A DNA stretch of 64,000 nucleotides from Chlorobiaceae bacterium. GTDB lineage: Bacteria > Bacteroidota > Ignavibacteria > UBA10030 > SZUA-254. The notes below the pieces were generated by a model. The model worked only from the letters and a program-made list of their open reading frames with translations. It did not search any database and was not told the DNA's origin. Made by a program: the position numbers and the translations under genes. The stretch spans positions 65,150 to 129,149 of the forward strand of contig PNNN01000050.1 in assembly GCA_013824245.1 (NCBI GenBank). Direction: 5' to 3'. Below are positions 11,982-63,201 of the stretch, one piece after another; the first letter of the stretch is position 1; each line of letters begins with the position of its first letter.

Positions 11982-11982
11982 T

Positions 11983-13005
11983 TCAATTTTTCGGAGGATC
12001 GATTGTCCATTTTAAAAGTGTTGCACCCCAGGTATATCCTGCACCGAAGCTCGCAAGAACAATTGTACTGCCACGTTTTAATTTTCCGGCTTGCCACCAC
12101 TCCGACAAACACAGCGGAATTGTTGCCGCCGTTGTGTTGCCGTATTTATCAATATTTATCATCACCTTAGACGGATCAAGTCCCATCCGTTCTCGTGTTG
12201 CATCAATTATTCTCAGGTTCGCCTGATGTGGGACTAAATAATCAACATCCTCGCTTTTAAGATTGTTACGCTCCATAATTTCGGCAGAAACATCCGCCAT
12301 CCCTATCACGGCAACTTTGAAGACAGCTTTGCCATCCTGATATATATAATGCCATTTTTTATCTACGGTTTCGTGCGTTGGAGGATTCAAACTACCGCCG
12401 CCTTTCATGTGTAAATATTTTGCACCGGACCCATCGCAATACATTTTTTGATCGATTATTCCAAGCGATGGATCATCGCTCGGCTCAAGAAGCACTGCCG
12501 CTGCTGCATCACCGAAAAGAACACATGTATTTCGGTCTGTGTAATCGGTGATTGAACTCATTTTATCTGAGCCGACAACAATAACTTTTTTGTGGGCACC
12601 TGTTTCAATAAATTGGGAACCAATCGTAAGCGCATAAAGAAAACCCGAACATGCGGCTGATACATCGAACCCCCACGCATTCTTTGCTCCAACTTTATCT
12701 TGAATCAGGCACGATGTTGGAGGGAAAAGCATATCCGGAGTTACAGTAGCCGTGATGATTACTTCGATTTCTTCTGCTGAAATCCCGCGCCGATTTAAAA
12801 CCTGCTGGACTGCTTTTGCTGCCATATCGGAGGTAGCGCCGTTTTCCAATATTCTACGTTCACGGATTCCGGTTCGACTGAATATCCATTCATCGGTTGT
12901 ATCTACCATCTTCTCGAAATCATGATTTGATAATATTTTCTCAGGGACGTAATGTCCAACCGCAGTAACTGCTGCTCGTATTTTCTTCATTTGCTCTAAA
13001 CTCAT
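11983..13005 (-). CDS. fabH: 3-oxoacyl-ACP synthase III
   Basis: 340 aa. Active-site AACSGF and C-terminal GAGYTWGA. Confidence 0.95.
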   Translation of the reverse strand: MSLEQMKKIRAAVTAVGHYVPEKILSNHDFEKMVDTTDEWIFSRTGIRERRILENGATSDMAAKAVQQVLNRRGISAEEIEVIITATVTPDMLFPPTSCLIQDKVGAKNAWGFDVSAACSGFLYALTIGSQFIETGAHKKVIVVGSDKMSSITDYTDRNTCVLFGDAAAAVLLEPSDDPSLGIIDQKMYCDGSGAKYLHMKGGGSLNPPTHETVDKKWHYIYQDGKAVFKVAVIGMADVSAEIMERNNLKSEDVDYLVPHQANLRIIDATRERMGLDPSKVMINIDKYGNTTAATIPLCLSEWWQAGKLKRGSTIVLASFGAGYTWGATLLKWTIDPPKN

Positions 13006-14015
13006 TGTTGAATAGCTTCCTGAATTCGGCTATTGATTTTTTTTCGCGCCATTTCTTCGGCGCGGAAAATCATATTCCTAATCGCCTTCGGGGTTGATTT
13101 ACCGTGACCAATAATGGTAACGCCGTTCACACCAAGCACCGGAACACCGCCAAATTCTTCGTAATCCATGCTTTTGAATGCTTTGCGCAATGTACTGCGC
13201 AGAACTAATCCGGTGAGCTTGAATAGTAAATTTTCCTGAATTACTTTTTTAATTTGATGTTTAAAGAAAGCCGGAATGCTTTCTCCAAACTTTAATATCA
13301 CATTTCCCACAAATCCATCGCAAACAATCACATCGGCTTCCCCCGATAAAATGTCGCGCCCTTCAACGTTTCCAATAAAATTCAATGAGGATTGTTTTAA
13401 AAGTTTATTCGCTTCCTTAACTGCTTCGTTTCCCTTTGTTTCTTCTTCGCCAATATTCAGCAGTGCGATCTTGGGCTTATCGATTCCAAACATTTCTTTC
13501 GTATAGATGCTTCCCATCAGTGCGAATTCATATAGATGTTGGGGTTTACAATCGACGTTCGCACCAGCGTCAAGTAAAAGACAAACACCTTCAACGGTCG
13601 GGAAAAAAGTCCCTATTGTCGGTCGACCGATTCCTTCGATTCTTCCGAGTATGAGGGTTGCGGTAGACATAACAGCGCCCGAATGACCGGCGCTAACAAA
13701 AGCATCGACATTTCCATTTTTATGGAGTGTCATACCAACACTAATAGATGAATCGCGCTTCTGTTTAATACCTGCGGTTGCGGCATCGTGCATATCGATC
13801 ACTTGCGATGCTTCAGCAAATGTGAACTTAGCATGACCGGTAGAAATTTGTTTCAATTCATTTCGGAGTTTTTCTTCGGGTCCTACGAGAATAATCTCGA
13901 ACCGGTTGGATGCCATTGCAAGCGCTTCAACGGCGCCGAGTAAAACGTTTCGTGGGGCAAAATCGCCGCCCATAGCGTCGAGCGCAATCCGTATGTGGGA
14001 GCTTTCAGCGTTCAA
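13002..14015 (-). CDS. plsX: phosphate acyltransferase
   Basis: 337 aa. IALDAMGGDFAP at the N-terminus. ATGA overlap with the fabH start. Confidence 0.95.
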   Translation of the reverse strand: MNAESSHIRIALDAMGGDFAPRNVLLGAVEALAMASNRFEIILVGPEEKLRNELKQISTGHAKFTFAEASQVIDMHDAATAGIKQKRDSSISVGMTLHKNGNVDAFVSAGHSGAVMSTATLILGRIEGIGRPTIGTFFPTVEGVCLLLDAGANVDCKPQHLYEFALMGSIYTKEMFGIDKPKIALLNIGEEETKGNEAVKEANKLLKQSSLNFIGNVEGRDILSGEADVIVCDGFVGNVILKFGESIPAFFKHQIKKVIQENLLFKLTGLVLRSTLRKAFKSMDYEEFGGVPVLGVNGVTIIGHGKSTPKAIRNMIFRAEEMARKKINSRIQEAIQQ

Positions 14016-30248: not shown

Positions 30249-30531
30249 CGCGTTCAGATTATGAAAATTGCCGATAAAAGTCAAGGATGTTTTTCTGCCA
30301 TAATTTCTAACTCCTGACAACATATCAATTCATCATGCCATGATGGCAGTTATGACAGATTCATTCAAAAAGCGGTTAAAAATATTGGCTAATATCGAAG
30401 ATAAACGCCATATTTTTTTTGATTCCCATGGCATATCTCTTGTAGGTAAGAAGCGTAGTGAAAAAAATTTTTATCTCTTTGGAGATGGCCTTCTTAGAGA
30501 AATGTGTCTTATTTTGAAAAGGAGTTTAAAA

Positions 30532-32478
30532 ATGCCCGGTAAAATTATTGGTATAGATTTAGGAACAACAAACTCGGTTGTTGCAGTAATGGAAGGTAAA
30601 GAACCAACAGTAATTGCAAATGCTGAGGGTGGGCGTACTACACCTTCGGTTGTCGGCTTTCCAAAAAGCGGTGAACGACTTGTTGGTCAGGCAGCCAAAC
30701 GGCAAGCAGTAACAAATTCACAAAACACAGTGTTCTCGATTAAGCGCTTCATGGGAAGATTTCAAAATGAAGTGACTGAAGAGATGAAACTAATCCCATA
30801 CAAAGTTGTGCAGGGAGATAATAACACAGCACGCGTTCAGATCGACGACAGAGTCTACTCACCGCCCGAAATCAGCGCGATGATTTTACAGAAAATGAAA
30901 CAGACGGCTGAAGATTATCTCGGCTCGAAAGTAACAGACGCAGTTATCACGGTTCCCGCATACTTCAACGATGCGCAAAGACAAGCAACGAAAGAAGCTG
31001 GTGAAATTGCCGGCTTGAATGTTCGTAGAATTATTAACGAACCTACTGCCGCCGCACTTGCTTACGGTTTGGATAAAAAACACAAAGACATGAAGGTTGC
31101 CGTATTTGATCTTGGCGGTGGTACATTCGACATCTCTATACTTGAACTCGGCGAAGGAGTCTTCGAGGTTAAATCTACAAATGGAGACACGCATCTTGGC
31201 GGCGACAATTTCGATCACCGAATAGTAGATTATATTGCAGATGAATTTAAAAAACAAGAAGGACTCGATTTACGAAAAGATCCGATGGCGCTTCAACGTT
31301 TGCGCGAGGCAGCAGAAAAAGCAAAAATGGAATTATCTCAGCTTATGCAAACCGAAGTCAACCTTCCGTTCATTACCGCAACATCTGAGGGTCCCAAGCA
31401 TTTGAATCTCACTATAACTCGCGCTAAGTTTGAACAGCTTGTTGAGGATTTGATTCAACGCTGTATTCCCCCTGTCGAAAAAGCACTGCGAGATGCTTCT
31501 CTTAATCCGAATCAGATAGAAGAAATAATTCTTGTCGGAGGGATGACGCGCGTACCACGTGTTCAACAACTTGTGAGAGAAATATTCGGCAAAGAAGGTC
31601 ATAAGGGTGTAAACCCTGACGAGGTTGTTGCGATTGGCGCGGCAATTCAAGGAGGTGTTTTATCCGGCGATGTTACTGATGTTTTATTGCTCGATGTTAC
31701 GCCGCTGACACTCGGTATTGAAACACTCGGCGGTGTTACCACACAAATGATAACGGCGAATACAACAATACCCACAAAGAAAAGCGAAATCTTTTCGACA
31801 GCATCAGAAAGTCAACCATCGGTAGAAATTCACATCTTACAGGGTGAACGACCAATGGCGATTGATAACAGAACGCTCGGCAGATTTCATTTAGACGGAA
31901 TTCCTCCGGCTCCGCGCGGTGTTCCTCAGATCGAAGTTACATTCGATATCGATGCAAACGGTATGCTTCATGTAACCGCGAAAGATAAGGCGACGAACAA
32001 AGAACAAAGCATCCGCATAACATCTTCAAGTGGTTTGAGCAAAGAAGAAGTTGATAAAATGAAAACCGACGCGCAGGCACATTCGGCTGAAGATAAAAAA
32101 CGAAGAGAAGAAGTCGATACGAAAAATCAAGCCGATAATCTTGTATTCCAAACACGCAAGCAGTTGAAGGAATTCGGCGATAAAATTCCACCCGACTTAA
32201 AATCGAAAGTCGAATCGGCGGCAGATGCTTTGGATGCGGCTATTAAAAACAATAACATTGCCGATATAAAAGCGAAGATGGAAGCATTGAATAATATTTG
32301 GAACGAAGCATCCACGGCGATGTATCAAAAAGCCACCGCCGAAGCGCAACAACAACAGGCAGGCGCGCAGCCACCTCCGCCAACAGGAGAGTCAAACGCG
32401 ACAAGCAACAACACAAAAAAGAACGACAAAGCCGTTGAGGATGCATCGTTCGAAGTTGTTGACGATAAGGATAAATAA
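30532..32478 (+). CDS. dnaK: molecular chaperone DnaK (Hsp70)
   Basis: The canonical N-terminus [15 protein letters not shown] starts at 30532, preceded by AAAAGGAG 8 nt upstream. The ORF's 64-aa upstream extension has no Hsp70 similarity. Confidence 0.97.
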
Positions 32479-32662
32479 CCCTCACCCCAATGGGGTTGAC
32501 TAATAAGTTTGTTTTCTCGTTACATTCTTCGACTTGCCGTCGAAGAACACTCGAAAACCGACAGGGTAAGCGGGTTCTCGAGTGCGATTTCGAAGAAATC
32601 GTGTATCGAGAGAACATTTTAGTCAGCCACTGGCTACGACGAAGTCGGAGCCGGGGAGAGGG
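32479..32662 (+). ncRNA. structured intergenic element, copy 1 (candidate novel sRNA or structured MITE); strand tentative
   Basis: Nested helices:
- P1: 32479-88 / 32653-62.
- P2: 32494-503 / 32619-28.
- P3: 32511-19 / 32607-15.
- Three hairpins at a 4-way junction: 32525-47, 32548-84, 32585-601.
- An extra hairpin at 32632-52.
A second copy lies at 62107-62278 on the other strand. Confidence 0.5.
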
Positions 32663-32927: not shown

Positions 32928-35564
32928 ATGAACTTTCAAAAATTCACAATTAAATCGCAGGAGGCAGTCCAGAATGCACAGGAGATTGCCGCAAGTTACG
33001 GCAATCAGTCCATCGAGCCGGAACACTTACTCGCTGCATTAGTACAGGACAGCGAAGGTTTAATTGCACCTATACTTCAAAAAATTGGAGCAAATCTTAA
33101 TTACATCAAAATAAAAATTAATGAGTCTATTGAAAAGCTTCCGAAAGTTTCAGGCACGGGTACAGGCAATCAATTCATAAGTCAAACACTTGTACAGATT
33201 TTCGATAATGCGGTGAAAGAAGCACAATCGCTCAAAGATGAATACGTTAGCACAGAGCATCTGCTTCTTGCGCTTGTTACGGGCAAATCACCAGCCGCTC
33301 AACTTCTTAACAGTCAGGGTGTATCTAAAGATCAAATATATAAAGCGCTCAAAGATATCCGCGGCACACAGCGCGTAACCGACCAAACACCTGAAGAGAA
33401 ATATCAATCGCTTCAACGATTTGGCAGAGATCTTAACGAGCTTGCCCGCAAAGGAAAACTCGATCCTGTAATCGGGCGTGACGAAGAGATTCGCCGCGTA
33501 CTTCAGGTTCTCTCGCGCCGAACAAAAAATAATCCCGTTCTTATCGGCGAACCGGGCGTTGGAAAAACCGCCATCGCCGAGGGTATTGCTCATAGAATCA
33601 TGCAAGGCGACGTACCCGAAAATTTAAAAACAAAACGAATTATAGCTCTTGATATGGGCACGCTTGTGGCGGGTACAAGTTTCCGAGGACAGTTTGAAGA
33701 AAGATTGAAAGCTGTCCTGAAAGAAGTGACCGAATCGGAAGGTGAAATTATTCTCTTCATCGATGAGCTACACACGCTCGTTGGTGCTGGCGCCGCGCAA
33801 GGTGCTGTAGATGCGGCAAATATGTTAAAGCCCGCTCTCGCAAAAGGCGAGCTTCGTGCTATCGGCGCGACTACAATAGATGAGTACAGAAAACATATCG
33901 AAAAAGATCCCGCGCTCGAACGCAGGTTTCAGCCGGTCCTCGTCGACGAACCGACAGTTGAAGATACCGTTTCAATTTTACGCGGACTCAAAGAACGATA
34001 CGAGGTCCATCACGGTGTTCGCATCACCGATGGCGCTATCGTAGCCGCGGCACAACTTAGCCACCGTTACATCAGCGATCGTTTCTTACCTGATAAAGCA
34101 ATCGATTTAGTGGATGAAGCCGCTTCAAAACTCAGAATTGAAATCGATTCTCTCCCCGAAGAACTTGACGAAATCGAGCGGCGTATTAAACAACTTGAAA
34201 TTGAACGCGAAGCGGTAAAGCGCGAAACCGATGAGGAAACCAAAGAACGCTTGGAAGATATAAATAAAGAATTAGCCGAGTTGAATCAGGAGCGCTCTGG
34301 ACTTCGCGCGCACTGGCAAAACGAAAAAGATTTGATTCAATCGATCAGAAAAATGAAAGGCGATATTGAAAACGCTAAAAATGAAGCCGAGCAAAACGAA
34401 CGTTCCGGCAATTTAGCCCGCGTTGCTGAATTGCGTTACGGAATAATCGCTTCATTTGAAAAAAAGCTGAAAGAAGCAAGCGTTAAGCTTGCCGAAATTC
34501 AACAAGATAAAAAAATGTTGAAGGAAGAGGTCGATGCCGAAGATATTGCCGAGATTGTTTCTCGCTGGACCGGAATCCCCTTAAATCGAATGTTAGAAAG
34601 CGAGCGAACGAAACTTCTTCACCTCGAAGAACGACTTCACGAACGGCTTGTCGATCAGGAAGAAGCCGTCCATGCCGTTGCCGATGCAATCCGCCGAAGC
34701 CGTGCCGGCTTGCAGGACGAAAAGAAACCGATAGGTTCATTTATTTTCCTCGGCTCAACTGGTGTCGGAAAAACCGAGCTTGCCCGCGCGCTTGCAGAGT
34801 TTCTATTCAACGATGAAAGCTCGTTGATACGGATCGATATGAGCGAATATATGGAAAAATTTTCTGTATCCCGGCTCATAGGCGCACCTCCCGGATATGT
34901 TGGTTACGAAGAAGGCGGTCAACTGACAGAAGCGGTTCGGCGAAAACCATATTCTGTTGTATTGCTCGATGAGATAGAAAAAGCGCATCCTGAAGTTTTC
35001 AATTTGTTATTGCAGGTTTTGGATGAAGGACGTTTGACTGATAATAAAGGTCGAACTGTCAATTTTAAAAACACAATAATCATAATGACATCGAACCTTG
35101 GATCGCAAATGATTCAGGAGAGATTGAGCGGTGAAATTATTTCGAACGGTGAACTTGAAAAAATTTATGGCGAGTTGCGGATTACGCTATTCGACATGCT
35201 TCGCCAATCGATTAGACCGGAATTTTTAAACCGTATAGATGAAATAATTCTCTTCAAACTTTTAAACAGAGACGATCTCAGGCGAATTATAGATATCCAG
35301 ATAAAACGATTGCAGAAAACGCTTGAACAAAAGAACATCCTGATCGAATTTACGGAAGATGCGAAAGATTGGCTCATCAAGTTAGGTTACGATCCAACGC
35401 TTGGTGCCAGACCTTTAAAGCGTGTGATTCAAAAATATATAGTCAACAAATTGTCTGAAGAAATACTCGCCGGTTCAATTGGCGAAGGTGATACCGTTGA
35501 AGTTTCGCTCGATAAACGCGGACTTATACAGTTCGTTAAGAAAATAACCGCTGAAGTTTTGTAA
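32928..35564 (+). CDS. clpB: ATP-dependent chaperone ClpB
   Basis: 878 aa. Two AAA+ modules ([10 protein letters not shown]; [11 protein letters not shown]) and a coiled-coil middle domain. Confidence 0.97.
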
Positions 35565-35668: not shown

Positions 35669-36496
35669 CTAACTGGATAATTTTCGTTTTCCGGGTTTTT
35701 GCAGGTAGTTTTTCTTCGAAACGATAGACTTGCCTAATCTTTTTTCTAACTTCTTCCTTGCACCTCCGGCAATATCACCGCCGGATTTTGCATCCGATTT
35801 TAATTTAGAAACTCCGTGTGAATTTTCTGTCCGGTGAATTTCGGTCGTAGCCCGCTCTCCCAACATTGTAAAAATCAATTCAAGGTCGTCCATGTGGTCG
35901 CGGAGGTTTTCCCGTTTTAATCTCTTTAGTTTTTTATACTGCGATGGGGTAACTCCGAAAGTTGCCTTCGAAATTTCCGCAGTCAGAATCTCATAATCCT
36001 TATTTTCTTCGGCGCCCCGTTCTTGCCATTCATCTGTAAGCTCTTCACGTATGGCGATTCCGCGCATTCGCTTTTCTATCCAATCTGCAGGATAACCTTT
36101 GAGCTTATAAAGCATTCGAGTCCGCTGGGTTGCTAATTCGGGATTTTCAATTTCCTGAACGCGCTCGTAACCGACTTTAGCTAACCAGCGTTTAAACGGC
36201 TCGGCTTTGGGTGAAGGGATGGATTGGACTATCCTAAAAATACCTTCGGTGTTAGAACAGTCGGTTTCGTACTTTTTTCCATCAGAAGAAACCAATTTCA
36301 GTTGTCGACAAAATGTCGACAACTCAGATCCATCTTCATCTTTAACGCGAATTTTCATTTTATACCAGTAATCCCGCGGATTATCGCTTCCGGTTAGCGC
36401 CGCGACTACATCGATAACCGAGAACCACCATTCATTGTTATGAATCGTTCTTCTAATTTTGCTTCCTTTAAACAACGCGATTTTATTGTTTTCCAT
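35669..36496 (-). CDS. Bro-N domain protein (DinD-like)
   Basis: 275 aa. N-terminal Bro-N-like region (IRRTIHNNEWWFSVIDVVAALTGS...) and a helical C-terminal half. Strong SD AAAGGAGGAT upstream. Confidence 0.7.
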   Translation of the reverse strand: MENNKIALFKGSKIRRTIHNNEWWFSVIDVVAALTGSDNPRDYWYKMKIRVKDEDGSELSTFCRQLKLVSSDGKKYETDCSNTEGIFRIVQSIPSPKAEPFKRWLAKVGYERVQEIENPELATQRTRMLYKLKGYPADWIEKRMRGIAIREELTDEWQERGAEENKDYEILTAEISKATFGVTPSQYKKLKRLKRENLRDHMDDLELIFTMLGERATTEIHRTENSHGVSKLKSDAKSGGDIAGGARKKLEKRLGKSIVSKKNYLQKPGKRKLSS

Positions 36497-36606
36497 TTCT
36501 ATCCTCCTTTGTTCCTATTTGTGAATTTATACTTCTAAAACTCTTCTTCACTTACTCTTGCCCCATTAATTATGTGGCTGAAGCCAACTGTTTTTTCTTT
36601 TTTAAT

Positions 36607-36707
36607 CAGTTCACTTGGCAATGCCATCCCCTCGGGAGAAGTGAACTGCTATAGATTTTCCTTCTTTTTTATTGCAGTTGACTTTAGTCAACTGATAATA
36701 TTTTTTT
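36607..36707 (+). other. pair of strong hairpins sharing CAGTTSAC stems, each followed by a T-run on the + strand
   Basis: First hairpin: 10-bp perfect stem CAGTTCACTT/AAGTGAACTG (36607-16 / 36639-48). Its 22-nt loop holds two mini-hairpins. Second hairpin: 8-bp stem CAGTTGAC/GTCAACTG (36675-82 / 36687-94), followed by TTTTTTT at 36701-07. Confidence 0.5.
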
Positions 36708-36743
36708 AATAGATGGCTTTAGCCGCATTGCTTTTGCCCTGTA

Positions 36744-38390
36744 CTATTTTCGCCTCCTCGCAGGTTCATCTACCCGGCGTTGCTCTTTATTCTTGCCACT
36801 TGCTTTTTCAGATTCCATTTTGGTTTTTTCGATCTTAATCCTCTCCAACAGCACGCTCGCCGGCTCACCTGCCCGCCGAAAATCCTTCTTCCTTTTTGTG
36901 GAAGTCTTAACTTGAGCAAGTTCACGTTCTTCCTTTATCTTTGCTAATAGCTCGGATGCAGGCGGGTCATTCGGGTCTTGCGGCACAAGTTCGCCACGGA
37001 ATGCTTTGGCGAGTATGGATTGCGTGAGTTTCTCTACTTGTTTAGCTGCCTTGGTATAGCGTTGCTCGATTTTATCTGCAACGGTAAATAATTGTTCAAC
37101 TCGACGAATGATTTCTTGCTGTTCTTCGATGGGTGGGATATCAAGATATAATTCTCTTATATCTTTTTGAAATAGATGAGGAGTAGCGGAACCTGTTATC
37201 CTTTCTTTAGCGATGGATTGTAATTTGGGACTACACAAGAAATAGAAAAGGAACTTAGGGATAAATGGTTCTCTCCCTCTAATCACGAGAAGCGATGAAT
37301 TTACAGTAGCTTTTTCCGGTAGTTGAGTAATAATACCAAGCTTTCCGATACCGGCCCCATCTTTGCATAATAAAATATCATTCTCTTGTAATTGTATTTC
37401 GGGGCTTTCTTCATACCGCCATTTTGATATTCTATAGGCATCTCTGTAATCCACTTCTTCACCATAATTTAATGCATATACTGCTAAAAATAGCGGACCT
37501 TCTTTTGTATATTCCTCAGCTTTTAACCCACGCCATCCTATGCGCGCTGCTATGTAAATTAAATTATCCAATTTTGCAGTTGCCCATGAATGAATAAAAT
37601 CATGTTGATTATATTCTAAAATGAAATCTGAATCGGGTTTTTTGGCTTTCCCCTTTTTGTAATCTGCATATTCTTTGTCAAATATTTCTTTTCTTTCCTT
37701 TACAATCCTATCCAACAAAACTACCGCGTTTTCTTCTATTTCATTCTCCTCTCTCCAATCCTCTGTCAACTTGCCAGAGCAGGCAGCAGCGAGGACAGAT
37801 TGCCTAAAACGCTTGAGTAGTTTTGGTATGCGCTCTAACTTTTTCCGACTTCGCTCAACTCGCTCCAATAATTGTTCCAGTTTGGTAACTATACGTTTTT
37901 GCTCGGGAAGTGGGGCGAGAGGAACCGCTGTGTTGGGTGCAAAGGTCTGGTTGATTCCTCCCTGCGCAGAACCTTTGAAGTTCTCCAAGATTCTGTCCTG
38001 ACCTTCCTTTGACATGAGGTAACGGAATAAAAAACGGGAATTAGTACGGTCGGTGGTACGACAAATAAATACGTGCTCATTCACTACTGCTTTCTTATAT
38101 GGGAAATCAGCTCCAACGAACGATGTTTTGCCAGTTGTGGCGCCGTCCTTGACGATGAGAATATCATTGGGTCGAATATGACCTTTGGTCATCAAATCAG
38201 CGAACTTCACTGGGACATACTTCACCGAACCGAAATCAAATCCACCATTGTAGTTTAAGTGTTCCCCGCCGACACTAGGAATACCTCCATTTATTCCCCG
38301 GACACCTCCGCGTGGTCTAGAACCTGATTCAAGGGCTATCAGCAGATCATAAAGCGAAGTCGTTGTCCAACTCTTCGGCAACTCACTCAT
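36744..38390 (-). CDS. hsdS: type I restriction-modification specificity subunit
   Basis: 548 aa. Two target-recognition domains separated by the conserved helical spacer (LPEQKRIVTKLEQLL...) and a second spacer (PPIEEQQEIIRRVEQLF...). ATGA overlap with the hsdM stop. Confidence 0.92.
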   Translation of the reverse strand: MSELPKSWTTTSLYDLLIALESGSRPRGGVRGINGGIPSVGGEHLNYNGGFDFGSVKYVPVKFADLMTKGHIRPNDILIVKDGATTGKTSFVGADFPYKKAVVNEHVFICRTTDRTNSRFLFRYLMSKEGQDRILENFKGSAQGGINQTFAPNTAVPLAPLPEQKRIVTKLEQLLERVERSRKKLERIPKLLKRFRQSVLAAACSGKLTEDWREENEIEENAVVLLDRIVKERKEIFDKEYADYKKGKAKKPDSDFILEYNQHDFIHSWATAKLDNLIYIAARIGWRGLKAEEYTKEGPLFLAVYALNYGEEVDYRDAYRISKWRYEESPEIQLQENDILLCKDGAGIGKLGIITQLPEKATVNSSLLVIRGREPFIPKFLFYFLCSPKLQSIAKERITGSATPHLFQKDIRELYLDIPPIEEQQEIIRRVEQLFTVADKIEQRYTKAAKQVEKLTQSILAKAFRGELVPQDPNDPPASELLAKIKEERELAQVKTSTKRKKDFRRAGEPASVLLERIKIEKTKMESEKASGKNKEQRRVDEPARRRK

Positions 38391-39841
38391 TTCTCTACAC
38401 CTTCTTCTTTTTCAATGAGTGCAACAATCTCGCGCAAGTCGTCAACAACTGCTTCCAACTCTGTAATTGCTTCGCTTGCTAAATCTTGCGGCTCGGGAAG
38501 TTCGTCGCTATCCTCCAACGATTTATCCTTGAGCCATGTTAGATCGAATTTGTAATCCCGTTCCTTGACATCTTCCATAGTAAAGCACTGGAAGCGTCCC
38601 TCATCGCCAAGGTCTTTGCGCTTGCTTCTGCCGTTAGGATCGGCGCCATAACATTTTTCAAATTCCTCAAAATGTTTTCCGCTCAGTGGTCGGTCTTTCT
38701 TTGTAATACCCGGAACATTCGAGCGGGCATCGAATATCCACACTTTTTCAGTTGGTATTCCTTTTTGGAAGAAAATCACATTTGCCTTAACGCCTTGACT
38801 GTATGGTGTAAATGTTCCCCTCGGCAATCTTAGAACCGTATGCAAATTGCAATCCTGCATTAGTATCTCAAACACTTCTCCTGCTTTTCCCTCGAACAAA
38901 CAATTATCAGGTAACACAATTGCTGCTCTGCCGCCGGGTTTAAGAATCTGCATTACATGCTGAACGAAGTTAAGCTGTTTGTTGCTTGTCTCTATTGTAA
39001 AATCATCACGCTCAGGAGCTTGGTTCGCACCCTTTGTGCCAAATGGCGGATTAGTTAAAACCACATCGTAGAATTCACCACGGTTGGCTTCGTAAATAGT
39101 ATCGCCAAGATAGATGTTCGGCTCAACACCATGAAGAAACATATTCATCAATGCAAGACGCCGCGGTCTTGGCACTAAATCCTGTCCATAAAACGTTTTG
39201 GTCTTTATCCGTTTTACAATCTTTCTATCAAGCGCACCTTTCGTCTCTTTCATCAACCATTCATAAGCGACCATAAGAAATCCGCCGGTACCACAGGCAG
39301 GATCGCATATAGCAAATTCATTATTCACTCGCGGATCCGGTTTCATTACTCTTACAATGGATTGAATAAGAACGCGTGGTGTAAAGTATTGTCCCGCTCC
39401 TTTTTTTCCTTCACTCGCCGCTTTCTCCAGCAATCCTTCAAACGCCGCTCCCTTCACATCAACATCCATCGACGACCAGTCTTCATCATCAATCATAGAA
39501 ATTACTTTCTTGAGATTGACCGGATTATTGAATCGTGGTACGGCTTGTTTGAAAATATCCCCAAGAATACCCTGTTGCCTTCCAAGAATTCTGATTACAT
39601 CGGTAAAGTGATCTAACAGCGCTATGCCTGAAAGGGCTGAGAGTTTATTCCATGAACAATCGACTTTGTTCTTTTTCCCCTGTGCGTTTATCTCTTCAAT
39701 GGATGAAAGATCAATATCGCGCTCGTTTGCCATCTTTAGAAAAAGGAGATAAGTGAGCTGCTCGATGTAATCACCATAATCAACACCATCATGACGTAAT
39801 GTATGGCAAAATCCCCAGAGTTTATTTACAATATCAGACAT
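38387..39841 (-). CDS. hsdM: type I restriction-modification N6-adenine DNA methyltransferase subunit
   Basis: 484 aa. HsdM N-terminal domain, SAM motif DPACGTGGFL and catalytic NPPFG. Confidence 0.95.
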   Translation of the reverse strand: MSDIVNKLWGFCHTLRHDGVDYGDYIEQLTYLLFLKMANERDIDLSSIEEINAQGKKNKVDCSWNKLSALSGIALLDHFTDVIRILGRQQGILGDIFKQAVPRFNNPVNLKKVISMIDDEDWSSMDVDVKGAAFEGLLEKAASEGKKGAGQYFTPRVLIQSIVRVMKPDPRVNNEFAICDPACGTGGFLMVAYEWLMKETKGALDRKIVKRIKTKTFYGQDLVPRPRRLALMNMFLHGVEPNIYLGDTIYEANRGEFYDVVLTNPPFGTKGANQAPERDDFTIETSNKQLNFVQHVMQILKPGGRAAIVLPDNCLFEGKAGEVFEILMQDCNLHTVLRLPRGTFTPYSQGVKANVIFFQKGIPTEKVWIFDARSNVPGITKKDRPLSGKHFEEFEKCYGADPNGRSKRKDLGDEGRFQCFTMEDVKERDYKFDLTWLKDKSLEDSDELPEPQDLASEAITELEAVVDDLREIVALIEKEEGVEK

Positions 39842-40257
39842 CTAGAATCCTTATATTTATATCTGTTGTTATTGCTGTCATTTGTCGGTTGTTTCGACAA
39901 GCTCAACAACCGGCAAGCTTTTTTACTCGAAATATCATCCGTTCCCTGAGCTTGTCGAAGGGACGGATTACCAAACTGGGTATAATTTTTAGAAAGTGCT
40001 GGTAATTTTTCAAAAAAACCTTCAATCAACGCCTCTTTCTTTTTTCTACTCCAGCCCTGCACCTGTTTCTCCCTGTAAAACGCTTCGTCAATACGAGGAT
40101 ACTCCTCACAATAAACCAATTCAACAGGTAGCCTGCTTTTAGTATAATTAGCGCCCTCTCCATTTTGGTGCTGCCATAAGCGATGTTCCACATTGATCGT
40201 ACTGCCAGTGTAATACGTTCCATCGCAACATTTGAGTATGTACATATATCCAATCAT
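39826..40257 (-). CDS. free-standing GIY-YIG nuclease-family protein (C-terminal ~50 aa read through repeat hairpins)
   Basis: GIY-YIG core YMYILKCCDGTYYTGST...RLWQH...E...W across the first ~90 aa. The tail (PSLRQAQGTD, LLSLSKQP) is encoded by the hairpin repeats at 39885-39966 and overlaps the hsdM start by 16 nt. Confidence 0.82.
   Translation of the reverse strand: MIGYMYILKCCDGTYYTGSTINVEHRLWQHQNGEGANYTKSRLPVELVYCEEYPRIDEAFYREKQVQGWSRKKKEALIEGFFEKLPALSKNYTQFGNPSLRQAQGTDDISSKKACRLLSLSKQPTNDSNNNRYKYKDSRCLIL
39885..39913. repeat. hairpin repeat with conserved 11-nt loop TCGACAAGCTC
   Basis: Stem GGTTGTT/AACAACC, extendable by C-G and U.G. Loop at 39894-39904. Confidence 0.7.
39939..39966. 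repeat. hairpin repeat presenting the same loop in inverse orientation (GAGCTTGTCGA)
   Basis: Stem CCGT(T)CCCT/AGGGACGG. The loop at 39948-39958 is the exact reverse complement of the loop at 39894-39904. Confidence 0.7.
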
Positions 40258-40269
40258 TTCATGATTTAT

Positions 40270-40357
40270 GCTGAGCTTGTTACACTGAGTTTGTCGAAGT
40301 GTCGAAGCGTTTTGCTGAGCTTGCTTGCACTGAGTTTATCGAAGTGTCGAAGCATTA
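40270..40357. repeat. 2 x 44-bp tandem repeat containing GAGCTTG / GAGTTTGTCGAAG / TGTCGAAG submotifs
   Basis: Unit 1 is GCTGAGCTTGTTACACTGAGTTTGTCGAAGTGTCGAAGCGTTTT. Unit 2 is GCTGAGCTTGCTTGCACTGAGTTTATCGAAGTGTCGAAGCATTA. The array fills the GIY-YIG/hsdR spacer and runs into the hsdR stop codon. Confidence 0.8.
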
Positions 40358-43039
40358 TGCCGCCATTGCGAGATTAATTTCAGTAATAAGATTGTGGAGA
40401 TCAACAAAGACTTCTTGTGCGGTTTTCTTGCCGCCACGATCTGTAAAAACCGGTTGAAGATCGAAATCTTCAAGGTCTAATGTGAGACTTTGGATAAGAT
40501 GATAGCGGATGAAGTCAATCCACTTTGTTTGCTGTTCCGAAAATTCTTTTCCTTGTTTGACTTTGTTAAGCGCTTTATTAACCCGTTCTTCTATGGTTAG
40601 CAATGGTTCTTCTTCTCGTGCCGCGTGCTTCACAATGGAAATGATGTCGGCAAGCGCCTTGTTGGAAACTAATTTGTGAGCACGCTGGAGTTCTTCCTCA
40701 GGAAAATCATTTTTCTGAAGCTTAGTGCGAAGGTCATTCAATACATCGGTTTTCCAATCCTTCGGCTTATAAAGCAGAACCTTGATCGCTTCGATTTGGT
40801 TTTTGTTTTCCTTCACAAACTTTGAAAACAATTCCAGATAGTCCTGCGGTTTAGCATTAACTCCTCCGACCGAAAATACGGCTTCTGAAGATACGTTATC
40901 CACAATTTCATAGCCCTTAAGAAATGTCCGCTTTGCTCTTGGATAGTCGAGACACAACTCCTGAAATTTTTTATTTCGAAGGAGCGCCATTACATTGACA
41001 AAATCTTTTGCGATACGATTTCTCAGTTCATCTGTGAATTTGCCGATATTGCCTTCGGGGATAAATTCCGCAAACTTTTCTCGCGCCTCTCCGCTTATAT
41101 CTTTTTCGATGCGGCGCAATCGTTTAATAAGAACTCCTGTAAAATAGTTACGATCTACATTCTGATAGATATTCTCGATAACCTGAGCAAGAGGAATAGG
41201 TTCTTTTCGAGGATCTTCGACGCGAAAATCTGTCGTGTTCTTAAAATACTCTATCAATGTTCCATCAAAGCAATCAAATATTTTGAAACACTTTTTATTA
41301 ATAGCGTCACACCTGCGAGTACCTCTTCCAAGCATCTGAGTCCAGAGGATACGCGATTTCACGACACGAAGGAAAACTATAAATTCAAGTGCGGGAATAT
41401 CGACACCCGTGCTGAGCATATCTACCGTAACAACAACCATCGGCTTGGGACGATTTCGGAATTTGCGAATTTTTTCGAGCGGCCTGTCGACATTGGGATT
41501 ACCTGTTATCTTCTGAACAAAGTCATCGCCCTGGCCAAATTCTTCTCGACAAAGCTGTACCAATTGATCAGCATGTGAAGTATGCTGAAGGTCGTTTGCT
41601 GCAAAGATCAATATTTTGGGAAATCGACCGGTTTCTTGTTCATGTGTGCGCGCATATTGTGCGATTTCTTTGACAATCTTTTTATTAGTATCAGGTGAAG
41701 TAATCTTTCTTTCGATTTCTTCGGCAGAATATGTTCTTTCATCTTCTAATTCATCATACGTTTCCTCACCTGTCTCCGTGTTAACTACTCCTACGTGTTC
41801 GCCCTCCTTGAGAAACGTTCCTTTGATAAGAACGTCTGATTTAATTTTGTAAGATTCATAATCACAGAGATAACCGTCTTCGATAGCTTGATCGGTTGTA
41901 TAACGAAATACTATTTCTTTGAACAAGCTCAACGAATGCGGGGCGGGTGTTGCTGTCAATCCGATTTTCACTGCATCAAAATATTCCATCACATCGCGCC
42001 AGATTGCAGTCTCATTGGCTGTATATCCTCTATGACATTCATCAGCAATGATAAGATCGAAGGCATGATTTGGAATATTTATTCTTTCTGCCTCCTCTTC
42101 ATAATCAGGATCGCTTTGATCCTGTTCAAATACTCGCTGCCATCCAAATAGATTGATCGTCATCCGTTGGATAGTTGAGACGTACACAAAGGTATTGCTC
42201 GGCTGAGGAGATGTGAGGTATGAATTGGGAAGAATGTTTGGATTAAAAGGTTCATCATCTTCGAAGTCTTCACGCTTGAATTTCTGACTATAGCATTCGT
42301 ATTCCTGATTAAATTTATATCCTTTGGGAGTTGTAAATGTAGCAAATTCGCGTACTGCCTGAGCAGCAAGCGCCCTGCGATCTACAAGAAAGAGAATGCG
42401 CTTGAATACTCCGGCGCTAAGCAAGCGATAGATTTGTGCAACGGTGAGATAAGTCTTGCCTGTACCGGTAGCCATTGCGACAAGCATTTCCCGCTTACCT
42501 TGCTGAAGAGCTTTTTCAATTGCAGTTATTGCTTCGCTTTGATATAGCCGAATACGGTAAAACTCTGGTTGAGTATGGATAGAGAGGTTAGCATAGTAAT
42601 GTTGACCTCGCTCGAAGATTTCATTAAGTCCCTCCGGTGTATGAAAGTTCGAGATCTTTCGAGATAAGCTTTTTTCATTTCGGACATCAATAAAGAACTC
42701 ATTTTCACCATTTGAAGAATAGAGCAAGGGAACTTTATATTCTCCCCATTTGCCAACGGTATTTTTTGCGCCACGCGAATACCTTTTTGCCTGTTCAAGA
42801 ACATTCTGAGCGCCAACACCTACCTTCTTCCCTTCAATGATTCCAAGAAGTTTTCCTTTTACAAAGAGGGCATAATCTGCTGGTCCGTTATCGGTCTGAA
42901 ATTCTTCAACTGCATGTCGTGTCAGCATGGAAACATCAAGATTGTCTTGATATTTAATGATTTTCCATGGTTGAGGAAGTTCTGTGAGCTTCTTATTGAT
43001 TCTATCTCTACGGGTTTGCCACTCTAATTCTTCTATCAT
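40355..43039 (-). CDS. hsdR: type I restriction enzyme endonuclease/translocase subunit
   Basis: 894 aa. N-terminal nuclease-like region, helicase motif I MATGTGKT and motif II ADECHR. The C-terminal helical tail resembles EcoEI-type HsdR (from memory). Confidence 0.94.
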   Translation of the reverse strand: MIEELEWQTRRDRINKKLTELPQPWKIIKYQDNLDVSMLTRHAVEEFQTDNGPADYALFVKGKLLGIIEGKKVGVGAQNVLEQAKRYSRGAKNTVGKWGEYKVPLLYSSNGENEFFIDVRNEKSLSRKISNFHTPEGLNEIFERGQHYYANLSIHTQPEFYRIRLYQSEAITAIEKALQQGKREMLVAMATGTGKTYLTVAQIYRLLSAGVFKRILFLVDRRALAAQAVREFATFTTPKGYKFNQEYECYSQKFKREDFEDDEPFNPNILPNSYLTSPQPSNTFVYVSTIQRMTINLFGWQRVFEQDQSDPDYEEEAERINIPNHAFDLIIADECHRGYTANETAIWRDVMEYFDAVKIGLTATPAPHSLSLFKEIVFRYTTDQAIEDGYLCDYESYKIKSDVLIKGTFLKEGEHVGVVNTETGEETYDELEDERTYSAEEIERKITSPDTNKKIVKEIAQYARTHEQETGRFPKILIFAANDLQHTSHADQLVQLCREEFGQGDDFVQKITGNPNVDRPLEKIRKFRNRPKPMVVVTVDMLSTGVDIPALEFIVFLRVVKSRILWTQMLGRGTRRCDAINKKCFKIFDCFDGTLIEYFKNTTDFRVEDPRKEPIPLAQVIENIYQNVDRNYFTGVLIKRLRRIEKDISGEAREKFAEFIPEGNIGKFTDELRNRIAKDFVNVMALLRNKKFQELCLDYPRAKRTFLKGYEIVDNVSSEAVFSVGGVNAKPQDYLELFSKFVKENKNQIEAIKVLLYKPKDWKTDVLNDLRTKLQKNDFPEEELQRAHKLVSNKALADIISIVKHAAREEEPLLTIEERVNKALNKVKQGKEFSEQQTKWIDFIRYHLIQSLTLDLEDFDLQPVFTDRGGKKTAQEVFVDLHNLITEINLAMAA

Positions 43040-59915: not shown

Positions 59916-61388
59916 ATGAAAGGAAAAGATTTGAGACCTGTTGTCCGTTTCTTGGAAAACAACCTAATAGAACGCATTATTGCGGAAGCCCGTGATATAA
60001 TGTGCAAGCTCGGTATCGAAATTCACAACGAGCGAATACTGACTTTGCTTGCAGATCATGGGGCAAGAGTTGATAAGAACACACAGAAAGTATTTTTCAA
60101 TCAATCTTTAATCGATAAAGCAATTGCCGCAACTCCTCATTCATTCAAGTTATACGATGTTCTTGGCAACGAAGCGGTTGATCTTTCCGGTTTCAATGTG
60201 AACTTCACACCCGGCTCAGCGGCGATTTACTGTCTTGACGGATCGACCAAGACAGTGAGGAAACCGACCACCTCCGATTACATCCGTTATGCAAAACTGA
60301 TGTCGAGAATGAAAAACATCGCATCCCAATCAACTGCCATGATTCCATCCGATGTGCACGAAAAAATTTCCGACAGCTACCGCCTTTATTTGAATTTGCT
60401 TTACTGCGAGAAGCCGGTTGTAACAGGCGCATTTACGATTGAAGCTCTCGAGATAATGAAAGAGTTGCAATTGGCAGTTCGCGGTACAAAAGAAAATCTC
60501 AAAGCCAAACCGCTTACAGTGTTTTCCTGCTGTCCAACTTCTCCATTGAAGTGGAGCGAGGTTACATCGCAAAACCTGATCGACTGTGCCGCTTATTCCA
60601 TTCCCGTAGAATATATCGCGATGCCTCTTTCTGGTTTCATGTCACCTGTAACAATTGTCGGAACACTCGTTCAGCACACCGCGGAAACTCTGAGCGGACT
60701 TGTAATAAGCCAGATGTTTAATCCGGGAACACCGGTTTTATACGGCGGCTCACCTGCTTTTTTCGATGTCCGATATGAAACTACTCCGATGGGTTCAATC
60801 GCAACGATGATGATCGACTGCGCTTACAACGAAATTGGAAAATATCTTAGCATCCCAACACAAGCTTATATTGGACTGACTGATGCGAAATCGCTTGATG
60901 TGCAAGCCGGATTTGAAACTGCAACCGGTGCAACGCTTGCCGCGCTCGCTGGTATCAATAATATTTCCGGTCCCGGAATGATCGATTTCGAAAGCTGCAT
61001 CAGCTTGGAAAAATTAGTGATCGATAACGAAATTTGCGGAACGATGCTTCGATTAGTAAATGGAATCGAACCGAAAGAAGATTTTCCCTCACTCCCAATT
61101 TTTGAGGAATTATTGCGCGATAAACATCTTCTCATTGCCGACCATACAAGAAAATATTTTAAAGAAGAAGATTATCTACCAGGACCAGTGATCAACAGGG
61201 CAAACCGTTCACGATGGGAAGAAGATGGAAGTATAACAGAGTGGGATCGTGCAACTCGTGAGATAGAAAAACAACTCAAGTCGTATCAGCCCACACGACT
61301 CGCGGAAAATATACAATCTGATTTGATAAAACTGATGTCGGCAGAAGCGCATAAATTTGGAATGAATGAATTGCCGAAAAGAGATTAG
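59916..61388 (+). CDS. MttB-family (trimethylamine methyltransferase superfamily) methyltransferase, non-pyrrolysine type
   Basis: 490 aa. Length and N-terminal pattern (IIAEARDIMCKLGIEI...LLADHGARVD) fit the MttB superfamily. There is no in-frame TAG, so it is not a Pyl enzyme. Family call from memory of the fold family. Confidence 0.78.
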   Translation: MKGKDLRPVVRFLENNLIERIIAEARDIMCKLGIEIHNERILTLLADHGARVDKNTQKVFFNQSLIDKAIAATPHSFKLYDVLGNEAVDLSGFNVNFTPGSAAIYCLDGSTKTVRKPTTSDYIRYAKLMSRMKNIASQSTAMIPSDVHEKISDSYRLYLNLLYCEKPVVTGAFTIEALEIMKELQLAVRGTKENLKAKPLTVFSCCPTSPLKWSEVTSQNLIDCAAYSIPVEYIAMPLSGFMSPVTIVGTLVQHTAETLSGLVISQMFNPGTPVLYGGSPAFFDVRYETTPMGSIATMMIDCAYNEIGKYLSIPTQAYIGLTDAKSLDVQAGFETATGATLAALAGINNISGPGMIDFESCISLEKLVIDNEICGTMLRLVNGIEPKEDFPSLPIFEELLRDKHLLIADHTRKYFKEEDYLPGPVINRANRSRWEEDGSITEWDRATREIEKQLKSYQPTRLAENIQSDLIKLMSAEAHKFGMNELPKRD

Positions 61389-62098
61389 TGCGAAAAATAA
61401 TCAACATACCGGTAAACTCTGTTATCCCAAAAGTGAATACAATCCTCGAACGACAAGGGATCCCGAATCACATTAACGCGAATGATCGCACAATAGAAAT
61501 TGCGGAAGAAGCGATTTCAATTTTCAGCAAACTTGCTTTTCCAATCGGTGTTATACAAGAATTATCGAAAGAAGAATTCGATAATGTTTTTCGTGGTGAA
61601 GGAAATAATGAAATCGATTCTCCGGTAAGGAACATTTTTAAAGCATCCGATGACTTGGCGCTCTTCGCTGTAACAATCGAAGAAGAAGTTTGCGTAGAAA
61701 TATCCCGTTTATTTTTTATGAACGATTTTGCTCTCGGCTCGATGCTTGACGCAGTTGCCTCGGAAGCAACAGAGATGGCGGCTCAGGCAACAGAAAACTA
61801 TTACCGATCTCACCTACAGAAAATAGGTCGTTTTAATAATGCAGGCGGTATTCTTCGCTTCAGTCCGGGATACTGCGGCTGGCACGTAAGTGGTCAGCGT
61901 AAATTGTTTCAGTATCTTCATGCTGAGGATATCGGAATCAATTTAAGGGAAAGCTTTTTGATGGAACCGTTGAAATCAATCAGCGGAGTTATTATATCAG
62001 GTAAAAAAGAAATTTTTCAATTTGAAGATACATTCTCATTTTGCGGTAGTTGTGCAACACATATTTGCCGCGAAAGAAGTAAATTGCTTCTTGATTAA
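61388..62098 (+). CDS. methionine-synthase activation-domain-like protein (Met_synt_B12 type)
   Basis: 236 aa. GTG start overlaps the mttB-family TAG by 1 nt. Motif RFSPGYCGW...KLF..L......I...ES..M.P.KSISGVI matches the MetH reactivation domain pattern. Confidence 0.68.
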   Translation: MRKIINIPVNSVIPKVNTILERQGIPNHINANDRTIEIAEEAISIFSKLAFPIGVIQELSKEEFDNVFRGEGNNEIDSPVRNIFKASDDLALFAVTIEEEVCVEISRLFFMNDFALGSMLDAVASEATEMAAQATENYYRSHLQKIGRFNNAGGILRFSPGYCGWHVSGQRKLFQYLHAEDIGINLRESFLMEPLKSISGVIISGKKEIFQFEDTFSFCGSCATHICRERSKLLLD

Positions 62099-62106
62099 TG
62101 ATTAGA

Positions 62107-62278
62107 CTCAACCCCCTTTGTCTCGGGGCTGTCTAAAAAGGTTCTCTCGATACTCTATAATGAAACTATGAACTCGAGAACCAGCATCTGTAGTCGGTTT
62201 TCGAGTGTTCTTCGACGACGAGTCGAAGAATGTAACGAGAAAACGAACTTATTGGACAACCCGGGAACGGGGGATGAG
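62107..62278 (-). ncRNA. structured intergenic element, copy 2 (inverted relative to copy 1); strand tentative
   Basis: The reverse complement of 62193-62262 matches 32493-32562 with 5 substitutions in 70 nt (aligned by eye). The P3 strands are identical. The closing helix is CTCATCCCCC/GGGGGTTGAG. Confidence 0.5.
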
Positions 62279-62319: not shown

Positions 62320-62961
62320 ATGGATATTATACAAGAACTTTCTGAACAGCTTCAACAAGGTAACCCGAAAAAAGCCGCCGAGCTTACCCAGCAGGCAATC
62401 AATGAAAACATTGACACTAAAACAATACTCGATCAAGGATTGATTGCGGGCATGTCTGTTGTTGGAGAAAAATTCAAACAGCACGAGATTTTTCTGCCTG
62501 ACGTTCTTCTTGCGGCAAAAGCAATGTACGCAGGCATGGATTTGTTAAAGCCATTAATGCTAAAGGAAGGAATTCCGACGATTGGCAAAGTGGTTATTGG
62601 AACTGTGCAGGGAGATTTACACGATATCGGCAAAAATCTTGTCGCAATCATGCTGAAAGGCGCGGGCTTCGAGGTTATTGATTTAGGCAATGATGTTTCT
62701 CCGGAAAAATTTCTCGACACCGCAGAAAAAGAAAACGCCGATATTATCGGCATGTCAGCCCTGCTCACCACAACTATGCCGGTTATGAAGAAAGTGATTG
62801 ATCTTGCAAAAGAGCGACAGATTTTTGGAAAGAAAAAATTCATCGTTGGCGGCGCGCCGCTTTCTACAGAATACGCAAAAGAGATTGGCGCCGATGCTTA
62901 TTGCTTCGACGGCATGAGCGCAGTGGAAGCAGTAAAACGTTTCACTTCAATATCAAGTTGA
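62320..62961 (+). CDS. corrinoid (cobalamin-binding) protein
   Basis: 213 aa. B12-binding_2 helical cap plus a Rossmann domain with the DxHxxG motif GDLHDIGKNLV. Confidence 0.9.
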   Translation: MDIIQELSEQLQQGNPKKAAELTQQAINENIDTKTILDQGLIAGMSVVGEKFKQHEIFLPDVLLAAKAMYAGMDLLKPLMLKEGIPTIGKVVIGTVQGDLHDIGKNLVAIMLKGAGFEVIDLGNDVSPEKFLDTAEKENADIIGMSALLTTTMPVMKKVIDLAKERQIFGKKKFIVGGAPLSTEYAKEIGADAYCFDGMSAVEAVKRFTSISS

Positions 62962-63015: not shown

Positions 63016-63201
63016 ATGTCATCCGTAAAAAAGCAAATGGTCGAAATAATCGAGGCACAGCCCGACGATAGCTCTTATGAAGAAATTCTTCGCGAACTGG
63101 CATTCCGAAAAATGGTTGAAAAAGGATTAACTGATTCCGAGCTGGGACATTTGATTTCGAACGATGAAATGCAGAAGCGTATACGCTCATGGCAAAAATA
63201 A
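63016..63201 (+). CDS. putative antitoxin of a type II TA pair
   Basis: 61 aa, acidic. Overlaps the downstream ParE/RelE-like gene by 13 nt. Assignment is by position. Confidence 0.6.
   Translation: MSSVKKQMVEIIEAQPDDSSYEEILRELAFRKMVEKGLTDSELGHLISNDEMQKRIRSWQK

Follow-up and report, generated by a model that had tools for sequence, protein, structure and literature searches.

A modular palindromic repeat, probably mobile on evolutionary time scales, in intergenic regions of Ignavibacteria-type genomes

Much is known about small palindromic repeats in Proteobacteria and Firmicutes. ERIC elements combine high nucleotide conservation across species with variable presence at orthologous loci and occur in size variants with internal inserts. 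The ends of IS200/IS605 insertion sequences (IS) and the attC sites of integrons are imperfect palindromes in which the enzyme reads stem boxes and conserved mismatches, not loops, and which insert without duplication. REPINs are short palindromic intergenic repeats that fold as a long hairpin or 'clover', are recognized by RAYT transposases, and can be found inserted within or beside each other (PMC3116915). BOX, RUP and SPRITE are known to be nested in one another and to exist in terminator-like versions; ERIC is an imperfect intergenic palindrome that occurs in either orientation, with a copy number that varies between taxa and strains, and when inserted at the 3' end of Yersinia genes it unmasks an RNase E site and so changes the levels of the transcripts (PMC10969869). 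Here we describe an intergenic palindromic element with two copies, w1 and w2, in a 64-kb stretch of contig PNNN01000050.1 (assembly GCA_013824245.1), the whole of which is referred to as the window. We consider it probable that this element is a small, non-autonomous, modular palindromic repeat of the REPIN/ERIC kind, and that it moves in Ignavibacteria-type genomes over evolutionary time. Its copies behave like a previously uncatalogued, low-copy family of small mobile elements rather than like a dedicated RNA gene.

Core, frame and invariant stems

The significance of the folds was assessed by comparing their minimum free energy (MFE) with that of dinucleotide shuffles (200 for w1). The MFE of w1, which occupies the 201-nt spacer between dnaK and the next gene, was -88.1 kcal/mol, as compared with -52.1 ± 4.9 kcal/mol for the shuffles (z = -7.4; none of the 200 reached the value of w1), and that of w2, on the minus strand, was -68.4 kcal/mol (z = -7.35). 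The reverse strand of w1 folds equally well (z = -9.5). The predicted fold of w1 corresponds exactly to the helices P1, P2 and P3, the hairpins A, B and C, and the extra hairpin that had been listed in an earlier note on this DNA, and every stem that the note had described was found at its stated coordinates. Core words of 23 and 24 nt occur exactly twice in the window, versus 0 expected by chance, and the alignment of w1 with w2 showed the five substitutions across the 70-nt 5' core that the note had counted. The recurrent, strongly folding element that it had proposed is thus real, with z about -7 for both copies. The parts of the two copies, in terms of the core and the surrounding frame defined below, are as follows.

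32479..32662, plus strand: composite copy 1 (w1), frame plus type I core plus inner frame hairpin (sequence, fold)
32479..32488, plus strand: 5' arm CCCTCACCCC of the w1 frame (P1), abutting the dnaK TAA stop codon (sequence, fold)
32492..32628, plus strand: w1 core, type I, 137 nt, with P2, P3 and arms A, B and C (covariance model R1, 149.8 bits, E = 3e-39)
32632..32652, plus strand: w1 inner frame hairpin GGCTaCGAC-gaa-GTCGgAGCC, with a C-GAA-G loop (fold)
32653..32662, plus strand: 3' arm GGGGAGAGGG of the w1 frame (P1) (sequence, fold)
62107..62278, minus strand: composite copy 2 (w2), frame plus type II core, antisense to both neighbor genes (sequence, fold)
62269..62278, minus strand: 5' arm CTCATCCCCC of the w2 frame, followed by a GTT bulge (sequence)
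62127..62263, minus strand: w2 core, type II, 137 nt (covariance model R1, 156.4 bits, E = 5e-41)
62107..62116, minus strand: 3' arm GGGGGTTGAG of the w2 frame, preceded by an ACAAA bulge (sequence; comparison with L008)

Homologues were also present in other genomes. In total, there are eight core copies in at least five Ignavibacteria-type genomes or metagenomes, at eight unrelated intergenic sites and in either orientation. Those outside the window are the following.

L001 and L002: Bacteroidota bin, metagenome-assembled genome (MAG) JAUXOG01; two-anchor pattern
L003 and L004: Ignavibacteriales MAG JACRFD01; two-anchor pattern
L005: metagenome contig; 20-mer search; a more divergent copy
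L013: flanking DNA of GCA_016214905.1; covariance model; the eighth copy, not pattern-selected

GCA_016214905.1 is the closest relative of the window organism (DnaK 96% identical), whose nearest relatives are all Ignavibacteriales or Bacteroidota MAGs. With the two-anchor pattern, both GTDB representative MAGs that carry the element yielded two copies each. Covariance model R1 was built from seven copies (w1, w2 and L001 to L005); searches with this model and with nhmmer revealed no further, degenerate copies in the window or in L001 to L012, L013 being the only addition. Seven of the eight copies were found by, or happen to satisfy, exact-match patterns. Both scans of the collection used strict patterns, so that more divergent members will have been missed. 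The w1 core is 94 to 96% identical to L001 and L002, which belong to another MAG, and only 79% identical to w2 in the same genome, whereas the w2 core is 90 to 91% identical to L003 and L013.

No match was obtained by blastn of w1 against plasmids and phages, by blastn (word size 11) against 5,426 complete E. coli genomes, or with two degenerate core patterns against viral contigs. Rfam 15, the database that the earlier note had suggested searching, contains no family that matches the copies: the whole window gave no hit at the gathering threshold, and permissive scans of w1, w2 and L005 returned sub-threshold noise only. The highest-scoring of these, a uxuA candidate in L005 (26.6 bits versus a threshold of 66.8), was rejected, as it occurred in L005 only and was driven by the private hairpin C of that copy. 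The literature search retrieved no report of palindromic repeats or structured RNAs in Ignavibacteria.

Alignment of the copies revealed that conservation begins and ends sharply at P2, and the unit is therefore a 137-nt core, in which the weak outer stem P2 and the closing stem P3 enclose hairpin A, hairpin B and an arm C that varies. P1 was found in w1, w2, L003 and, in a weaker form, L005, and is absent in L001, L002, L004 and L013. It forms part of the frame, a G/C-rich hairpin composed of P1 arms (CCCTCWCCCC or CTCAYCCCCC) and an inner hairpin, which occurs without the core, just as the core occurs without the frame. The element thus differs from the four-way-junction unit of about 180 nt that had been described: a 137-nt core with an optional arm C is nested in a separable frame, and P1, missing from four of eight copies, is not part of the conserved unit. 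The element is modular, with core and frame as two separable modules.

The cores differ mainly in arm C, which is CGATTTC-GWA-GAAATCG in type I (w1, L001 and L002), A/T-rich in type II (w2, L003, L004 and L013; weakly folded in w2, unstructured in L003 and L004), and of a third kind, CCCGGC-UUCG-GUCGGG, in L005. Hairpin C, as originally drawn, was robust in only four of the first seven copies. The P2 arms GGYTGAC and GTCARCC are present in seven of eight copies, and P2 is the least conserved helix, with 82% of cells paired; the compensatory swap claimed for it is true for w2, but the same pair is an A.A mismatch in L003, L005 and L013. As to the frame, it starts 0 to 8 nt past the upstream stop codon in three of the four frame-bearing copies, and the L008 frame overlaps the end of the called upstream gene. 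The junction that follows the porin stop codon in L003, ATAA and then CCCTCACCCC, is the same as in w1, and the L003 frame carries a hairpin of different sequence just before its 3' arm, at the place equivalent to the w1 inner hairpin. Another palindromic repeat (CCCTTCGACTTCG...GGGACTTCGCTCAGGGTGAC) was observed in L002 at 4030-4080, about 60 nt downstream of the core, which suggests that repeats cluster in this spacer.

The conservation pattern within the core is highly uneven. Among the eight copies, 2 of 70 columns in P3, A and B vary, as compared with 52 of 69 elsewhere (Fisher p = 1e-20), and the expectation of conserved stems with free loops was in this respect borne out. To control for selection bias, conservation was recomputed without the pattern-forced columns (2 of 32 versus 49 of 64 vary; p = 2e-11) and for the never-selected copies w1, w2 and L013 only (0 of 70 versus 34 of 69; p = 2e-13). 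In the consensus structure, 33 of 50 pairs never vary, and changes on both sides of a pair are confined to arm C (five pairs) and P2 (two pairs); no pair in P3, A or B has changed on both sides. The stems, whose conservation the earlier note had taken as the pattern of a selected RNA or DNA structure, are fixed in sequence without covariation in P3, A or B, which is not the mark of a structure-selected RNA. The loops of A and B and arm C differ block-wise and not by scattered point changes. Each stem contains a YTCGAR motif, with five to six TCGA tetranucleotides in about 90 nt of core, the first three of which (alignment columns 38, 49 and 60) are spaced exactly 11 nt apart in seven of eight copies.

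An inert insertion decaying neutrally would not give this pattern, and an RNA selected for its structure would be expected to covary. The pattern looks like what sequence-specific recognition of hairpin stems would leave, as at REP/REPIN (PMC3116915) and at IS200/IS605 ends. The element also holds a warning for RNA-motif discovery, since it has an excellent fold, free loops and homologues across genomes, yet no covariation where it counts. The wobble pairs do not fix a strand: the A.C mismatch in stem B is invariant in all eight copies and would be G.U on the other strand, two G.U pairs are likewise invariant, of which one belongs to P3 and the other to the 3-bp helix between P2 and P3, and the P2 wobble alternates, its outermost mismatch reading T.G in four copies but C.A, the reverse complement, in L002 and L013. 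In the aligned orientation, there are 26 G.U versus 12 A.C cells.

Presence and orientation at orthologous sites

The core was missing in close relatives at all three sites tested. The dnaK spacer, of 201 nt in the window, measures 47 nt in L006 and L007 (DnaK 96% identical), 47 nt in the P0003 contig (90%) and 60 nt in L010 to L012 (89%). The L006 spacer contains a plain hairpin of 13 bp with TATTT after it (-20.4 kcal/mol). On either side, the coding sequence shares about 95% identity with the window, but the spacer shows neither residual similarity nor duplication, indicating that it was replaced wholesale. At the site upstream of the corrinoid protein gene, L008 is 93 to 94% identical to the window at the nucleotide level on both sides and contains only a 58-nt frame hairpin (1096-1153; -40.5 kcal/mol) without core. 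This hairpin, CTCATCCCCC-GTT-CCCCCTTCTC-taaaatta-GAGAAGGGGG-ACTAA-GGGGGTTGAG, has a 10-bp hairpin as its interior instead of the core, and its arms and bulges are nearly identical to those of the w2 frame; a stretch of 16 nt (CTCATCCCCCGTTCCC) is shared without any difference, though with respect to the neighboring genes it lies on the other strand. The two-tier hairpin overlaps the 3' end of the called Met_synt_B12 gene in L008, which is called with 254 aa versus 236 aa in the window. At the same site, L009 (protein 90% identical) has an A/T-rich spacer of 97 nt with neither frame nor core, and the P0122 contig a spacer of 105 nt. Finally, at the porin-pstS site of L003, the spacers of L013/L014 and L015 (PstS 89% identical) are 187 and 99 nt long and lack the element. 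L015 also carries a RelB-like gene, an N6/N4 DNA methyltransferase and an NmeDI-type nuclease (10874-13220) inserted between pstS and pstC, which are absent from L013 and L014. The core comes and goes between close relatives, with a lineage-specific presence at all three sites. No target-site duplication was visible at the frame or core boundaries of the sites compared, which show no direct repeat, in agreement with what had been noted for the window copies.

The core is in sense orientation to the neighbor genes in w1, L004 and L005 and antisense to both in w2, L001, L002 and L003, whereas L013 lies between convergent genes. This occurrence in both orientations relative to the neighbors rules out a 5' leader or riboswitch; an RNA thermometer was rejected as well, since neither the orientation nor the downstream genes agree from copy to copy. 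When the frames of w1 and L003 are read in the direction of the upstream gene, they are alike (TAA stop, CCCTCACCCC, inner hairpin, GGGGAGAGGGT), and the cores inside them lie in opposite orientations. In w2 and L008, the frame as a whole points in opposite directions at one and the same site, in genomes that are about 94% identical. The orientation pattern fits elements that are bounded by inverted repeats and insert or recombine either way.

The genes next to the two window copies are listed below.

30532..32478, plus strand: dnaK, upstream of w1; 100% identical to P0001, of an NCBI MAG labelled Chlorobiaceae, and 96% to P0002
32680..32916, plus strand: 78-aa membrane open reading frame (ORF), downstream of w1, followed by clpB
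32928-35564, plus strand: clpB, downstream of w1 beyond the 78-aa ORF
61388..62098, plus strand: Met_synt_B12-type gene, upstream of w2
62320..62961, plus strand: corrinoid (B12-binding) protein gene, downstream of w2

The start of dnaK was placed at 30532 (M65), where its homologues begin; the ORF from the first ATG (30340) has 712 aa, and the preceding 64-codon stretch (30340-30531) is probably untranslated. The 78-aa ORF has no Pfam match; it is kept in L006 and the P0003 contig and absent in L010 to L012, where clpB directly follows dnaK. Just past clpB, a type I restriction-modification island (35669-43039, minus strand) encodes a Bro-N protein, HsdS, HsdM, a GIY-YIG nuclease and HsdR. 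The closest relative L006 has pyruvate formate-lyase and its activase at this position; the island is a second recent rearrangement next to the dnaK-clpB locus. Between the corrinoid and S-methyltransferase genes, the window (63016-63482, plus strand) and L008 (1883-2349) contain a pair of genes for a 61-aa protein and a 97-aa ParE toxin that is absent from L009 and the P0122 contig; it looks like a toxin-antitoxin insertion polymorphism beside w2. For annotation, the element is of value as a mark of recent intergenic turnover beside dnaK/clpB and the corrinoid methyltransferase operon, and it could thereby alter the coupling of those genes.

Possible mechanism and alternative explanations

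We infer protein recognition of the stems, mobilization through single-stranded DNA or through the arms, and effects on flanking transcripts. The three invariant, TCGA-containing imperfect stems would be the protein recognition sites, read in a folded single-stranded form, most likely DNA, as REP/REPIN and IS200/IS605 hairpins are by HUH/Y1 enzymes. The element may move and flip through cut-and-paste directed by the hairpins, or else through template switching between, or recombination of, its inverted arms. When transcribed with the flanking operon, the element would form a very stable 3' or inter-cistronic RNA structure, and at dnaK it would have taken the place of the simple terminator-like hairpin of the relatives.

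A number of observations weigh against a mobile repeat. No mobilizing enzyme was identified, the 64-kb window containing no transposase or Y1 gene, and the only nearby Y1_Tnp gene, in L001, is flanked by different REP-like palindromes. At dnaK, the spacer was replaced and not simply interrupted; transposition proper is therefore not demonstrated, and import by recombination is equally possible. The copy number looks low, about two per GTDB representative genome by a pattern that seven of the eight known copies satisfy, unlike typical REPINs and MITEs (transposable elements of the miniature inverted-repeat type). Target-site duplications are missing, conservation does not extend to the outermost ends, and the invariant stems could also be explained by a host function. 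There are, moreover, only eight copies, seven of them tied to exact-match patterns, a bias that was controlled for. The Y1_Tnp gene in L001 (2209-2652, minus strand; E = 1e-8), IS200-like and of the RAYT-type HUH class, is located about 1.1 kb from the core and is surrounded by clusters of REP-like palindromes at 1840-2200 and 2900-2940 (GTCAGGTCGAAAGACCTGAC-GCACGC and CCCGCCGAAG...CGTAGGCGGG). A RAYT link was rejected because the palindromes flanking this gene are unrelated to the core in sequence. No IS with P2-like ends was found in the roughly 230 kb of sequence examined.

One alternative, which we regard as unlikely, is a cis-acting RNA selected by the host, namely, a terminator, attenuator or 3'-end protector between cistrons that replaces ordinary terminator hairpins, with mobility being secondary. 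The element sits where L006 has a terminator-like hairpin after dnaK, frames start 0 to 8 nt past stop codons, and all six copies with both neighbors known are downstream of a gene's 3' end (five between co-directional genes, one between convergent genes; L004 and L005, for which only the downstream gene is known, are outside this count). A conserved run of four to six T also follows P3 in the aligned orientation. However, the element occurs in both orientations, and the run follows P3, which is A/U-rich and the only helix to precede it, in one of them only. The P1 3' arms are followed by TCTGAAAG and TTAATAAA and not by a T-run on the transcribed strand, and an intrinsic terminator was rejected, as a consensus scan found no terminator-like site in w1 or w2. 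A structural role would in addition leave unexplained the absolute sequence invariance of three stems without covariation, and close relatives manage without the element at three of three sites.

It is quite unlikely, in our opinion, that the copies are an independent family of non-coding RNA genes, spread horizontally, whose product would be a trans-acting small RNA or a ribozyme, about 130 nt long and built around a three- or four-way junction. Such a family, new for want of any known Rfam counterpart, would agree with the strong folds, with the excess of G.U over A.C cells (26 to 12) in the aligned orientation, and with changes in loops and arm C that often keep the hairpin potential, as illustrated by the cUUCGg loop of the L005 arm C and the five arm-C pairs changed on both sides. 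Typical functional RNAs are nevertheless conserved in the opposite way: here it is the stems that do not vary, whereas loops and parts distal to the junction change freely, and covariation is missing from P3, A and B. In L003 and L004, arm C has no structure; the A.C that is fixed in B could be read as G.U on the opposite strand only; and the element is lacking in relatives at orthologous sites. Neither does a conserved promoter or terminator accompany the copies, in which conservation starts abruptly at P2. An internal promoter of the Bacteroidetes type was rejected, since TAAGTTTG, a match to the -7 motif, is broken in two of eight copies (w2 and L005) and has no -33 partner; generic scans for sigma-70 promoters and terminators were uninformative, with nothing attached to the element. 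Guide-like loops in the style of bridge or omega RNAs were rejected for lack of a consistent loop identity or complementarity to the 250-nt flanks, the one 11-mer match, in L004, being not significant after about 84 tests. A small-protein gene was likewise discarded, because none of the reading frames stays open in every copy and the frame is shifted by indels.

A bolder form of the mobile-repeat explanation, which we think rather improbable, is that the core is the substrate of a novel hairpin-reading recombination system in Ignavibacteria: a three-stem 'clover' of invariant, TCGA-bearing imperfect stems whose fixed A.C would mark the strand and which, as folded single-stranded DNA, would insert into or swap with terminator-type hairpins past stop codons, in either orientation and without duplication. 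If so, the hypervariable loops and the exchangeable arm C would be free cargo positions, and the element would represent a new class of structure-targeted mini-element and not another REPIN or MITE family. Very unlikely, finally, is an array of double-stranded DNA sites in which the YTCGAR half-sites bind a dimeric protein in an operator-like manner and folding is irrelevant. The half-sites are indeed invariant with variable spacers between them, and the five to six TCGA in about 90 nt are in part phased (the first three by 11 nt in seven of eight copies). However, the perfectly nested topology (frame, P2, P3, then A, B and C) and long-range inverted repeats 90 to 120 nt apart point to intrastrand pairing, and the neighbors have unrelated functions (heat shock, methyl transfer, phosphate uptake, polysaccharide synthesis and two-component systems), with no common regulon apparent.

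Comparison with known repeat families

The small mobile repeat that we favor shares with REP/REPIN its non-coding, palindromic and intergenic nature, imperfect stems that are conserved with free loops, the capacity for a long-hairpin or 'clover' fold, and the absence of target-site duplications; it is also nested and flipped, and its invariant stems contain conserved mismatches. It differs in that there is no GTAG/CGTC-tagged REP unit of 20 to 40 nt and no REP doublet, three distinct stems being present instead within P2/P3. Copies are apparently few per genome (two pattern matches in each of two GTDB representatives, as compared with tens to hundreds for REP), and no RAYT gene flanked by core sequence was found in the window or the loci examined. 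Similarly, the element resembles ERIC/IRU (127 bp) as an imperfect intergenic palindrome of about 130 nt that is present in either orientation. Unlike ERIC/IRU, it has no sequence similarity to that family (blastn, E. coli genomes), belongs to another phylum, shows no TA-type duplication and is conserved in three interior stems.

The earlier note had offered a structured MITE as its alternative, and a mobile repeat does fit better, given that relatives lack the element at three of three sites and that the copies are non-syntenic and in either orientation. It is not, however, an 'ordinary MITE', as target-site duplications are absent, copies are few, and conservation is found in the interior and not at the termini. 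As in classical MITEs and in BOX/RUP/SPRITE, the element is small, non-coding, intergenic and strongly folding, with presence/absence polymorphism and nested elements, and short non-coding copies are found at non-homologous sites and differ in presence between relatives. Classical MITEs are unlike it in their target-site duplications; here, the terminal repeats are the least conserved part, and no parent IS with matching ends was seen in any locus examined. With IS200/IS605 ends and attC it would have in common the imperfect palindromes, conserved stems and mismatches, and lack of duplication on insertion, but no IS200/IS605 tnpA or tnpB, integrase or cassette array is adjacent to any copy and its multi-branch fold is larger.

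Given these differences from classical MITEs (duplication), REPINs (doublet and copy number) and ERIC (homology), we file the element only as a new family of that general kind. Ignavibacteria thus gain a repeat family with unusually clean features: interior stems that are conserved across genomes while loops are replaced, two modules that are nested and separable, flips at identical sites, and no duplications.

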